Notes: generated by a model from the sequence alone, not told the origin. A stretch of DNA of 64,000 nt from Candidatus Bilamarchaeaceae archaeon (GCA_038851325.1 JAWCKZ010000002.1:44935-108934); one strand, 5' to 3'; shown: positions 18,941 to 56,695, counted from the first letter of the stretch. Numbers and translations are program-made.

Positions 18941-19248
18941 GGCCACGGCCGAGATTCGAACTCGGGTCTAGGGCTATCAGCAGGGTTTTTGCCCTCAGAA
19001 ACACCGAAGACAAAAAGCCCAACACACCCAGAGGAGAAACCTCAGGGCTTTTTCCAGGGTTTTTGCCCTCAGAAACACCGAAGAAACCTCAGGGCTTTTT
19101 CCAAACGGTATTTAGCTCCTGAGACAGTCCTTAGGTCATAAGCACCTGCTTAGGAGCCAAATACCGTTTCCAGGGTTTTTGCCCTCAGAAACACCGAAGA
19201 CAAAAAGCCTCCACAGGCCCCCATGCTAACCACTACACCACCGTGGCC
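18941..19248 (-). tRNA. tRNA-His(GUG) with encoded G-1 and a 235-nt intron at 37/38 (18976..19210)
   Basis: Exons join to G-GCCACGG TG GTGT AGTGGTTA GCAT G GGGGC CT GTG G|A GCCCT AGAC CCGAG TTCGAAT CTCGG CCGTGGC C; all stems pair. Confidence 0.93.
18981..19209. repeat. Direct and inverted repeats inside the tRNA-His intron
   Basis: 30-mer cagggtttttgccctcagaaacaccgaaga at 18981, 19055, 19171; 22-mer agaaacctcagggctttttcca at 19035 and 19082; inverted repeat aaacggtattt (19103) / aaataccgttt (19159). Confidence 0.95.
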
Positions 19249-54136: not shown

Positions 54137-54820
54137 ATGCAAAAAACAATTGTTTGTGATTCCGGAGCCCTTATATCTCTCACAACCTCTTGTCTTACTG
54201 AAATTCTCTATATCTTTAAGAAAAAATATAATGTTTCGTTTATTATTCCGCCTGCGGTTGAAGAGGAAACCGTTCTCTACCCAATGCGAAGGCGCATAAA
54301 GGAGTTTTTGTTCTCCGCAGTGAAGATAAAGGATGCGATAAATGATGGTGTTATAACCGTTATGACGACAGAGCGTCTTAAGCAAAACACCGAGAGACTG
54401 ATAAAGCTTGCCAATAATATGTTTTATGCGCAGGGAAAATCGATAAATCTTCTTCATACGGGAGAGACGGAAGTGCTTGCGCTCGCGGGAGAGATCGGCA
54501 CAGAAACTATTCTGGTCGATGAACGAACAACGAGATTACTCCTGGAAACGCCGTTTAGGTTAAAGGAGCATATGGAAGAAGAGTTTGGAGTAAATATTAT
54601 GATTAACAGAAATAGTTTCGAGGAGTTCTCAAAATATGTTGCGGGCTTGGACGCCATACGAAGCAGCGAACTTGCGATGCTTGCATACGAAATAGGCTAC
54701 TTCAATAAATATCAGGGAATGGAAAAGGAAGCAGCGGAAGCCGCGCTTTATAAAATAAGATTCGCCGGGTGCAGTATAAGGTTTGATGAGATAGCAACAT
54801 ATCTGAAGCTGGTAGAATGA
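54137..54820 (+). CDS. PIN-domain protein (DUF3368/COG2405-like)
   Basis: IVCDSGALISL, LHTGETEVLALA, ILVDERTTR acidic active-site residues. Confidence 0.7.
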   Translation: MQKTIVCDSGALISLTTSCLTEILYIFKKKYNVSFIIPPAVEEETVLYPMRRRIKEFLFSAVKIKDAINDGVITVMTTERLKQNTERLIKLANNMFYAQGKSINLLHTGETEVLALAGEIGTETILVDERTTRLLLETPFRLKEHMEEEFGVNIMINRNSFEEFSKYVAGLDAIRSSELAMLAYEIGYFNKYQGMEKEAAEAALYKIRFAGCSIRFDEIATYLKLVE

Positions 54821-55509
54821 CCCTGCCATCGGTGTTTTCAAATTATGATAGCGTAAGGATAGTGCTTGACCATCGTGAGTCTGAGGAGTTTGTGGATTTG
54901 CTCACAGAGTTTGGTGCGCACGTAGAGAAGGCGCAGCTTGATGTTGGAGACTTTGTCTGTTCTGAGCGCGTTGTAGTAGAAAGAAAGACGCGCGAGGATT
55001 TTGAGACATCTGTAATAGATGGCAGACTTTTTAGACAGTTGGAAAATCTTGTTCATAATTTTCCGCGGCCCGTTGTAATCGTGGAAGGCCAGGAAGAGCG
55101 CTCTAATAGAATAACTCGAGAAGCGCTCATGGGCGCCTACTCCGCGATAGTGTCGGATTACGGACTTCCACTTATCTTCACGAGAGATACAAGTGAAACA
55201 GCAGAGTTTATTTTCTTTTTGGCAAAGCACGAGCAACGCTCAAAGAAACATCCGTTAAGGATATTTGCAAAACGAAAGTCTCTAACACCATCGCAAAGCG
55301 CACGCGCAATTGTTGAAATGCTTCCAAGCGTTGGACCAAAACTCGCAAAAGCTATCCTTCTTCACTTTGGTAATATAGAATCGTTCGTAAAAGCATCAGA
55401 GAATGAATTGGCTGAAGTTCCAGGACTTGGCGAGAAGCGTGCGCGCATTATATTCTCTCTTATTCGATATCAGTACAAAGATGACGAGGATGAATTAACA
55501 GAGATTTGA
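54817..55509 (+). CDS. Short XPF/ERCC4 nuclease with tandem HhH
   Basis: VLDHRE, LDVGDF, VVVERKT, IVEG; LPSVGPKLA and VPGLGEKRA. Confidence 0.92.
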   Translation: MTLPSVFSNYDSVRIVLDHRESEEFVDLLTEFGAHVEKAQLDVGDFVCSERVVVERKTREDFETSVIDGRLFRQLENLVHNFPRPVVIVEGQEERSNRITREALMGAYSAIVSDYGLPLIFTRDTSETAEFIFFLAKHEQRSKKHPLRIFAKRKSLTPSQSARAIVEMLPSVGPKLAKAILLHFGNIESFVKASENELAEVPGLGEKRARIIFSLIRYQYKDDEDELTEI

Positions 55510-55537: not shown

Positions 55538-55713
55538 CGGGCCTGGCGCGATTAACAGCCTGCAATAGAAATAACGAAAAGAATTAATATCAGCAGGCTT
55601 TTGAACGCGCGACCTGCGGATTTCAGCGGTCTTCAGCAAATAAGCCGAAAACATTAAAAGTCCGTCGCTCTACCAAGTTGCTCCAAGCGGGAGCTTGACT
55701 GAGCTACAGGCCC
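55538..55713 (-). tRNA. tRNA-Lys(UUU) with three introns (D-loop, 37/38, 59/60)
   Basis: Exons give GGGCCTG TA GCTC AGT..GGTA GAGC G ACGGA CT TTT AA TCCGC AGGTC GCGCG TTCAAAT CGCGC CAGGCCC G; inserts at about 55675-55696, 55622-55654 and 55552-55599, each with an internal hairpin. Confidence 0.9.
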
Positions 55714-55771
55714 GATTTTTATTTTTAATTTTCATGATTACCTTTATATTTCTATTCTTGGAAAACCCTAC

Positions 55772-56695
55772 ATGAACTCAACGAGCGCTAGAAGAAGATT
55801 GATATTTGGGACCATAGTTCTCCTTGTTGTAGGATTTTTGCTTGTAGTCATGGGATTTGTTCTCCTGAGCTATCTTGCACCGTTGATAACAGGGAAATGT
55901 GTGGCGGAGGTTGTTATAGATTATCCCCTCACGATAGACGGTAGCCCTGAGACGCTCGTATCAAGTGGGTATCCTAGCTCTGAAGAACTCGCTGCACGCA
56001 TAAGGGAACTCAATACGAGGGAGGATGTTGGGGCTGTTCTTTTTGTAATAAACACTGGAGGCGGATCTGTTATCGCTACAAGAGAGATATACGATGCTAT
56101 TAAGGAGCTGAAAAAACCAAAGGTTGCCTATTTCAGAGAAACGGCTGCTTCTGGAGGATATTACATAGCAACCGGGACGGATTACATCGTCTCAGAACCA
56201 TACGCGATTACCGGAAACATAGGGGTAGTCGCTACTGTTGTTAGCATGGAGAGTCTTTTTGAGAAGATCGGAGTGAACGTAACCTCTGTCACTTCTGGTG
56301 TTCACAAAGATATGGGCTCACCATACCGCAACATGACAGAAGAAGAGATAAAGATAATGGAGTCCATCATCTTGGAGGTTTTTGAGGATTTCAAATCTGT
56401 TGTGCAGCATAACCGAGCAGGAAAGCTAAAGATTGCACGATTTAACGAAATTACGGATGGTAGGATACTGAGTGGAAAACAAGCGCTAGAGGCCGGGCTC
56501 GTTGATCAACTGGGAAACAAGAACGATGCCATCATGAAGGCAGCTGAATTGGGAGGGATAACTGCAAAGAAGCCTGAGGACGTGCGGATCTGCAAGATTG
56601 AAGTGAAGCCTCAGGGAGCAACTCTTCTAAGCGCAGAGACAATGCTTAAGTCCATAGGTGAGCATTACCAATCAATCGGGGTGTTCATGAGGTGA
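55772..56695 (+). CDS. sppA: Signal peptide peptidase SppA (S49)
   Basis: N-terminal TM; INTGGGS, AASGGYYIA, TGNIGV, HKDMGSP, GLVDQLG. Confidence 0.92.
   Translation: MNSTSARRRLIFGTIVLLVVGFLLVVMGFVLLSYLAPLITGKCVAEVVIDYPLTIDGSPETLVSSGYPSSEELAARIRELNTREDVGAVLFVINTGGGSVIATREIYDAIKELKKPKVAYFRETAASGGYYIATGTDYIVSEPYAITGNIGVVATVVSMESLFEKIGVNVTSVTSGVHKDMGSPYRNMTEEEIKIMESIILEVFEDFKSVVQHNRAGKLKIARFNEITDGRILSGKQALEAGLVDQLGNKNDAIMKAAELGGITAKKPEDVRICKIEVKPQGATLLSAETMLKSIGEHYQSIGVFMR

Follow-up and report, generated by a model that had tools for sequence, protein, structure and literature searches.

A tRNA-Lys(UUU) gene divided by three introns

Does a short stretch between two protein genes contain a tRNA gene that becomes recognizable only after three inserts have been taken out, and if it does, could these inserts be removed by the splicing enzyme of the cell? 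The window that was analysed is a stretch of 64,000 nucleotides from the genome of an archaeon belonging to the Micrarchaeota (DPANN), and a sequence-only reading had proposed in it a tRNA-Lys(UUU) with three introns. The cloverleaf, the orthologs and the ARAGORN call obtained after splicing bore out this proposal, and the presence of a real tRNA-Lys(UUU) gene with inserts of 21, 33 and 48 nt in the stretch 55538-55713, on the minus strand, is confirmed. The gene (window 55538..55713, minus strand, equivalent to G000:C2:100472-100647) is 176 nt long without an encoded CCA, and its last nucleotide, at window 55538 (minus strand), is the discriminator G73.

Four exons and three introns were delineated, all of them on the minus strand. 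Exon 1 (GGGCCTGTAGCTCAG, 15 nt, tRNA positions 1-15, window 55699..55713) was defined by gapless alignment to the intron-less orthologs L009, L010 and L005; exon 2 (CTTGGTAGAGCGACGGACTTTTA, 23 nt, positions 16-37, 55655..55677), which carries the anticodon TTT at 55656-55658, was defined by its sequence together with the ortholog alignment, and exon 3 (ATCCGCAGGTCGCGCGTTCAAA, 22 nt, positions 38-59, 55600..55621) and exon 4 (TCGCGCCAGGCCCG, 14 nt, positions 60-73, 55538..55551) by ortholog alignment. Intron 1 (TCAAGCTCCCGCTTGGAGCAA, 21 nt, 55678..55698) interrupts the D loop at 15/16, between G15 and C16, as placed by bulge-helix-bulge (BHB) scoring and the orthologs. Intron 2 (ATGTTTTCGGCTTATTTGCTGAAGACCGCTGAA, 33 nt, 55622..55654) occupies the canonical 37/38 site and intron 3 (AGCCTGC...GCAGGCTGTTAA, 48 nt, 55552..55599) lies in the T loop at 59/60, both being placed by BHB scoring. 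The sites and lengths claimed earlier for the latter two inserts were correct, and so were their hairpins, GTTTTCGGC/GCTGAAGAC in intron 2 and GCCTGC/GCAGGC in intron 3.

Joining the exons in silico gave a tRNA of 74 nt (GGGCCTGTAGCTCAGCTTGGTAGAGCGACGGACTTTTAATCCGCAGGTCGCGCGTTCAAATCGCGCCAGGCCCG). Its acceptor stem (GGGCCTG/CAGGCCC, 7 bp), D stem (GCTC/GAGC, 4 bp) and T stem (GCGCG/CGCGC, 5 bp) are fully paired, and the anticodon stem (ACGGA/TCCGC) contains 4 bp and an A27.C43 mismatch. U8 followed by A9 stands between the acceptor and the D stem. Splicing at 15/16 yields the mature D loop AGCTTGGTA (AGCUUGGUA at the RNA level), which is the same as in the intron-less orthologs; the anticodon loop is CTTTTAA (CUUUUAA) with the anticodon UUU, the variable loop (AGGTC) is 5 nt long and the T loop reads TTCAAAT (UUCAAAU). 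U8, A14, G18-G19, U33, a purine at 37, G53, U54-U55-C56-R57-A58 and C61 are all present in the spliced tRNA. Splice choices yielding the anticodon UGA or UUA were rejected, because the body, whose variable loop has 5 nt, is of the Lys type and UUU is the anticodon of every ortholog.

A putative promoter could be recognized in the sequence upstream of the gene, a TATA-like box (ATATAAAG, window 55742..55749, minus strand) located at -36 to -29 from G1, and many of the other 41 tRNA genes in the genome are preceded by similar A/T boxes at an equal distance. The 3' trailer is without the clear T-run that was found after most of the other tRNA genes here.

Detection of the locus and test against chance

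The unspliced gene gave no match in the window with either ARAGORN or Rfam, even at permissive E-values, just as had been expected from the claim that standard annotation would probably miss it. The in-silico spliced 74-mer was recognized by ARAGORN as tRNA-Lys(ttt), and near-identical intron-less orthologs reached 74.5 and 67.1 bits against the Rfam model RF00005. Partly spliced versions submitted to ARAGORN -i returned the wrong calls tRNA-Stop(tta) and tRNA-Thr(ggt).

The whole 0.9-Mb genome was searched with our own intron-tolerant cloverleaf scan, in which one insert was allowed in each of the three loops. The locus obtained a score of 16.0 with a length of 175 nt. In the null scan of the reversed genome the sole locus of at most 200 nt scored 13.5, and the four loci scoring at least 16 were 435-652 nt long, each having three long fake inserts. 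Thus, a score of 16.0 at 175 nt compared with the reversed-genome null is not a product of chance. The idea that a cloverleaf-like arrangement arose by chance in an intergenic spacer could draw only on the failure of standard finders to report the locus; it is already refuted by the null scan, the covarying orthologs and the ARAGORN call after splicing, and we consider it practically out of the question.

Orthologs and covariation

Orthologs were collected by BLAST of the gene against 40 relatives and by scanning species-representative genomes for an exact pattern. With the inserts taken out, 16 Micrarchaeota orthologs aligned over 74-75 nt with a mean column identity of 91%. The same mature sequence was obtained from these 16 orthologs, which carry zero to two inserts each at varying sites; one further locus has three. 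The exact exon 2 stretch TGGTAGAGCGACGGACTTTTA is kept in many Micrarchaeota MAGs. In the alignment of the 16 orthologs, 94.6% of the cloverleaf cells were paired, as against 22-50% for slid controls. Six stem pairs change on both sides, with such a change in 36 cells, and the covariation score was 0.270, compared with 0.095 for shuffles and at most 0.087 for slid controls. In 15 of the 16 orthologs the pair 27:43 (window 55665 and 55616 in the present gene), at the top of the anticodon stem, is not of the Watson-Crick type (A.C, U.C or C.U), so the mismatch in the anticodon stem looks like a conserved feature and not like a defect of this copy.

The distribution of the inserts is very uneven. 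No insert was present in the Lys(UUU) genes of G013, G020, G015, L062 and L081; a single one was found at 37/38 in G003, G005, G024 and G012, in the D loop in G004, G007, L072 and L082, and in the T loop in G011 and G019. Two inserts were carried by G006, G002, G001, G010, L067 and L111, and three by L080 (a marine MAG) and the genome studied here. The sequence and the length of the inserts are unrelated between genomes, the exception being intron 1, which has a homolog in G006.

The gene is flanked by an ERCC4/XPF-type nuclease gene with helix-hairpin-helix domains (window 54817-55509, plus strand) and by an S49 (SppA-like) peptidase gene (window 55772-56695, plus strand), the latter being a conserved neighbour across the genus. 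It adjoins tRNA-Lys(UUU) in six same-genus genomes, with 56-61% amino-acid identity, and this shared neighbour means that the genes compared are true orthologs.

The need for the gene and its uniqueness in the assembly

In the assembly of this 0.9-Mb genome, which is 91% complete, 42 tRNA genes were found by the scan. They have 41 different anticodons, CAU occurring twice, and this locus is the sole credible gene with a UUU anticodon among the 42. Neither BLAST nor the pattern and structural scans found a second Lys(UUU) copy in the assembly, intron-less or otherwise, which agrees with the sequence-only reading. Other 'Lys(TTT)' matches of the scan resembled the null loci, being 380-800 nt in length and containing three long gaps, and were discarded as noise. 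The sole other lysine tRNA gene is that of tRNA-Lys(CUU) (G000:C1:157211-157588, minus strand), having introns of 87 nt at 17/17a, 86 nt at 37/38 and 132 nt at 59/60. Since the assembly is 91% complete, the uniqueness of the gene applies to the assembled part and some room is left for a second Lys(UUU) gene.

In long ORFs AAA makes up 4.36% of the codons and AAG 3.46%. According to the established decoding rules, the C34 of tRNA-Lys(CUU) cannot read AAA. Since AAA is the commoner of the two codons and a C34 is unable to read it, a tRNA-Lys(UUU) gene is needed; without the gene described here the genome would seem unable to read its commonest lysine codon.

Interrupted tRNA genes are the rule in this organism. 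Our own scan, in which some placements are approximate, detected 65 inserts in 38 of the 42 genes (about 90%): 4 genes are uninterrupted, 17 contain a single insert, 15 two and 6 three, the last group consisting of Lys UUU, Lys CUU, Tyr, Gly UCC, Glu CUC and Glu UUC. Inserts are most frequent in the genome at 37/38 (25 inserts), 15/16 (12) and 59/60 (8), and these are the three sites interrupted in Lys(UUU). Only 15 of the 42 tRNA genes passed the Rfam cut-off; the blind spot that conceals the present gene hides about two thirds of the tRNA genes of the genome. The cloverleaf scan of the genome recovered no gene for Pro(UGG), Pro(CGG) or Gly(CCC), and Leu(GAG) was a weak call.

An alternative would be that the locus is a decaying pseudogene and that a functioning Lys(UUU) gene is hidden in the 9% of the genome missing from the assembly. 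Two weak splice motifs, a weak terminator and the 91% completeness of the assembly would fit this. However, the exons differ little or not at all from those of the orthologs, none of the four stems is damaged, and there is synteny with the only Lys(UUU) gene in each of six same-genus genomes. A promoter-like box precedes the gene, and no second copy was returned by BLAST, pattern or structural scans. With 38 of the 42 tRNA genes interrupted, interruption is the norm here and not a sign of decay. A pseudogene is therefore very improbable, and the sequence data argue strongly that the gene is the functional, single-copy tRNA-Lys(UUU) of this Micrarchaeota (DPANN) archaeon.

A further feature of the tRNA set concerns the AUA codon. 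A tRNA-Ile(UAU) gene is present (G000:C1:105515-105757), and only two credible genes with a CAU anticodon were found (C1:7167-7265 and C9:25520-25731). This gene content makes it probable that the reader of AUA is UAU rather than a modified CAU tRNA.

Intron 1 has a perfect central helix

The sequence-only reading had described a D-loop insert of about 21-22 nt with ambiguous borders. The insert is there and is 21 nt long; its borders, on the other hand, are exact. Only the placement AG|TCAAGCTCCCGCTTGGAGCAA|CTTGGTA, that is 15/16, restores the D loop AGCUUGGUA of the orthologs. In this placement the D-stem 5' strand pairs with an intron strand to form the central helix GCUC(10-13)/GAGC, in which 4 of 4 pairs are made, the bulges are A14 G15|U and AA|C16, and the intron forms the 5-bp hairpin CAAGC-UCCC-GCUUG (h'). 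Intron 1 thus shows the elements by which a BHB is defined, a central helix of 4 bp, two bulges of 3 nt each and a flanking helix on at least one side; with an exon-side helix h of a single base pair (A9-U17) it belongs to the HBh' class. The local MFE fold returned exactly the central helix and the CAAGC/GCUUG structure, both in this genome and in G006.

The hairpin GCTCC/GGAGC, which had been proposed earlier for this intron, proved to be part of a competing fold. Together with a closed D stem its computed energy was -61.1 kcal/mol, about equal to the -60.7 kcal/mol of the BHB fold. Despite this equality it was rejected as the structure of intron 1, because only GCUC/GAGC with CAAGC/GCUUG gives a BHB, matches the D loop of the orthologs and agrees with a compensatory change in G006. 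The G006 intron is homologous and has 21 nt as well; its six differences all fall in the tetraloop or in one compensatory pair, in which G-C is replaced by A-U so that the hairpin reads CAAAC/GUUUG. According to the folding model, the GCTCC/GGAGC conformation is the shape that the RNA would have to leave before cleavage. The intron strand would mimic the 3' strand of the D stem, and the 5' strand of the D stem would serve in the central helix.

The 3' end GAGCAA|C of intron 1 is common to the distant Micrarchaeota loci L067, L072, L080 and L111, and in L082 the end of the intron reads GAGTAA|C. The 15/16 introns of distant Micrarchaeota are 33-57 nt long. Within the genus, the D-loop intron is located at 15/16 in this genome and G006, and at 17/17a, with a central helix formed by UCAG and CUGA or CUGG, in G001, G002 and G004; G003 and G005 have none.

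Weak central helices in introns 2 and 3

The central helices of the splice motifs had been described as largely mismatched. This description holds for introns 2 and 3 and fails for intron 1, whose helix is perfect (4/4). In intron 2 the outer helix is the anticodon stem, with four consecutive pairs in the h register, and the central helix CUUU/GCUG consists of C32-G, U33.U, U34.C and U35.G, in which 2 of the 4 pairs are standard (C-G and U.G). The bulges are UA|A and AA|A, and after one mismatch the 9-bp hairpin helix GUUUUCGGC/GCUGAAGAC follows. The alternative registers 36/37, 38/39 and 39/40 lead to an identical mature RNA, and none of them is better while keeping the flanks. Register 39/40 offers a good 4-bp helix (UUUA/UGAA), but both flanking helices are lost, and it was rejected.

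The outer helix of intron 3 is the 5-bp T stem (h) and its intron helix GCCUGC/GCAGGC has 6 bp (h'). The central helix UUCA/UGUU also contains 2 of 4 pairs (U54.U, U55.U, C56-G, A57-U), with the bulges AA|A and AA|U, and in the MFE fold a 6x6 internal loop appears between the T stem and the intron 3 helix. Published classifiers regard 4/4 central pairs as canonical and 3/4 as relaxed (quoted from bioRxiv 10.64898/2026.10.13.758758). Introns 2 and 3 do not reach the three of four central pairs of the 'relaxed' class.

The MFE structure of the anticodon arm favours a slipped 5-bp helix (UUUUA/UGAAA), in which the 3' splice site would be buried. MFE folding was uninformative as a test of motif quality, as RNAfold slips the U-rich and A-rich strands even in relatives with perfect motifs. 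Since relatives with good motifs slip as well, the slippage of the anticodon arm is weak counter-evidence.

Same-genus orthologs have good central helices at 37/38 (GAAG, GAAG, AAAG and GAGG). In this genome the 37/38 intron of Lys(CUU) ends with GCUGAA|A and has the same two central mismatches as that of Lys(UUU), and the 3' strand is GCUG in the 37/38 introns of His and Tyr too. Among the 65 inserts, some of which are placed approximately, the central helix is perfect in 18 and has at least two mismatches in about 9; such motifs are evidently tolerated here.

Comparison of the three introns with other introns and repeats in the genome gave only short, insignificant matches, the best being 15 nt to the end of the tRNA-His intron (E 0.035), and these three carry none of the long repeat modules that occur in other introns of the genome. 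An exact search of metagenomes for the exon 2/intron 2 junction, as a sign of strain variants, returned no match. A near-tandem 10-nt repeat, GCTGAAGACC/GCTGAAATCC, extends across the 3' splice site of intron 2 (window ~55617-55636, minus strand); the hairpin of the intron is made by its first copy, and the splice site lies in the second. It may represent a small duplication that weakened the central helix of intron 2.

Splicing enzymes and the predicted processing

The genes of the enzymes concerned are intact in this genome. The sequence-only reading had suggested that the type of the endonuclease be identified, and a broad-specificity epsilon2 EndA of the ARMAN-2 type, 391 aa long, was found (G000:C1:16745-17917). 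It matches PDB 4FZ2/9W2K end to end (residues 4-391 against 4FZ2_A, E 4.5e-130), and in the alignment the residues opposite the catalytic Y236, H251 and K282 and opposite Y160 and K161 of the ARMAN-specific loop (ASL) are all identical; the roles of these residues have been described (PMC12397907 and PMC3488258). A match to EndA was obtained in each of the 41 genomes that were searched within the order, nearly always over the full length, and intron-poor relatives were no exception. RtcB (C2:2322-3626; PF01139, 559 bits) and the archaeal CCA-adding enzyme (C1:138664-139020; PF09249, 147 bits) were identified as well.

A second, smaller EndA-like ORF of 154 aa is located outside the window (G000:C8:39847-40308, locus L022:1318-1782; PF01974, 36 bits). 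It has kept the Tyr aligned with the catalytic one and has no His at the catalytic position. The ORF occurs in 24 of 25 family genomes and adjoins the epsilon2 EndA gene in G017 and G018, and judging from its sequence the protein may be a non-catalytic partner. The ARMAN-2 text that was searched makes no mention of it.

The following processing can be predicted for the gene. Transcription from an archaeal TATA-type promoter would give a precursor of about 176 nt, in which the homodimeric three-unit epsilon2 EndA would cut six sites, producing introns of 21, 33 and 48 nt and exons of 15, 23, 22 and 14 nt. The exons would be ligated by RtcB, and the CCA-adding enzyme would finish the 3' end, leading to the 74-nt tRNA plus CCA. 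Since each splice motif lies within one cloverleaf arm, the three introns should be removable independently and in any order. In introns 2 and 3 both flanking helices would be kept and the bulges would have the right size and spacing; with two pyrimidine-pyrimidine mismatches in each central helix, these introns would have to rely on a broad tolerance of the enzyme.

The ARMAN-2 EndA substrates that have been assayed were of the strict hBHBh' and the hBH type, and neither had a central helix with two mismatches (PMC3239211). Because an essential, single-copy tRNA depends here on two motifs with two standard central pairs each, the sequences suggest, as a hypothesis, that the substrate tolerance of the enzyme is wider than the assayed substrates show. 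In its strongest form the hypothesis would be that the epsilon2 EndA, alone or with the 154-aa EndA-like protein, routinely and accurately cuts central helices of two pairs, so that the spacing of flanks and bulges defines the sites and a paired 4-bp helix is not required. The motifs meant are the 37/38 introns of both Lys tRNAs, ending with GCUGAA|A, and the 59/60 intron of Lys(UUU). We put this forward tentatively, as a possibility to which we give slightly less than an even chance. If it is true, the cell depends on that activity and the definition of the archaeal splice motif is widened.

It is also conceivable that the gene is real and that intron 2, intron 3 or both are not ordinary EndA substrates, but need an extra factor (e.g. 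the 154-aa EndA-like protein) or another register or pathway, or are spliced so inefficiently that the supply of tRNA-Lys(UUU) is limited. The central helices with 2 of 4 standard pairs, the recurrence of the GCUGAA|A 3' end and of the mismatch pattern in the 37/38 intron of Lys(CUU), and the presence of a second, apparently non-catalytic EndA-like ORF in 24 of the 25 family genomes, in two of them next to the EndA gene, would be in accord with this. However, neither the two flanking helices nor the 3-4-3 spacing has been lost, and nothing ties the small EndA paralog to splicing. U.U and U.C are the mismatches that disturb an RNA helix least, as is generally known for RNA. By our own placements, about 9 of the 65 introns of this genome share the feature of at least two central mismatches, and the epsilon2 EndA is known to accept relaxed motifs (PMC3239211). 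On balance, a special requirement of introns 2 and 3 appears unlikely, though less so than decay of the gene, and cleavage by a broadly tolerant epsilon2 EndA is the reading that we prefer.

Relation to known systems

Multi-intron tRNAs and broad-specificity endonucleases had been named as known in ARMAN/Micrarchaeota and Thermoproteales, which fits with the affiliation of the genome to the Micrarchaeota and agrees with the ARMAN-2 literature. For ARMAN-2, Candidatus Micrarchaeum acidiphilum, disrupted tRNA genes and the epsilon2 EndA have been reported (Fujishima et al. 2011, PMC3239211; Hirata et al. 2012, PMC3488258; Miyata et al. 2025, PMC12397907), and in vitro the enzyme cuts strict and relaxed (hBH) motifs, including a 59/60 intron (PMC3239211). 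The present genome comes from the same phylum; its EndA has 391 aa against 395 aa in ARMAN-2, aligns with it end to end and conserves the catalytic triad and the ASL Tyr-Lys. Intron sites outside the canonical one, among them 59/60, relaxed motifs and several introns per gene are likewise common to the two. The proportion of interrupted tRNA genes differs: it is 56% in ARMAN-2 and 'up to 87%' in other archaea (PMC3239211), whereas here it is 38 of 42, six of which have three introns. Unlike the substrates assayed with the ARMAN-2 enzyme, introns 2 and 3 have two central mismatches each.

Intron turnover between close relatives, as seen here, is also a feature of the Thermoproteales/Crenarchaeota. 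[quoted passage not shown] However, they belong to another phylum and their endonucleases are of the (alpha-beta)2 type, with a CSL loop instead of the ASL. The same arrangement of introns in three arms is found in a eukaryotic nuclear tRNA gene with three introns, which is processed by the eukaryotic endonuclease and has no evolutionary link to this gene. In Asgard archaea D-arm introns are often missed by annotators, a minority of the inserts is without a canonical BHB, and comparison-based, motif-free detection was used, which is the approach that resolved the intron borders here; they represent another lineage, and DPANN has 0 occurrences in that preprint (bioRxiv 10.64898/2026.10.13.758758).

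Multi-intron tRNA genes with up to three introns and the epsilon2 enzyme are thus already known for ARMAN-2 since 2011-2012, and similar genes are known in Thermoproteales. The gene is mainly a good annotation catch, and it adds a well-documented case, with 16 orthologs and with intron gain, loss and repositioning within one genus. Only the substrate range of the enzyme, as a hypothesis, goes beyond the literature compared here. An essential tRNA with two motifs outside the current BHB definitions offers a natural substrate for probing the limits of epsilon2 specificity.

A minor observation concerns a palindromic element, TGAACGACGATTCGTTCA, with variants such as TTGAACTTCGTTCAA, which recurs beside or inside several tRNA genes of the genome. 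It is located in the 5' leaders of tRNA-Ser(CGA), Ser(GCU), Ser(UGA) and Val(GAC), in the flanks of tRNA-His (window 18941-19248) and inside the T-loop intron of Lys(CUU).
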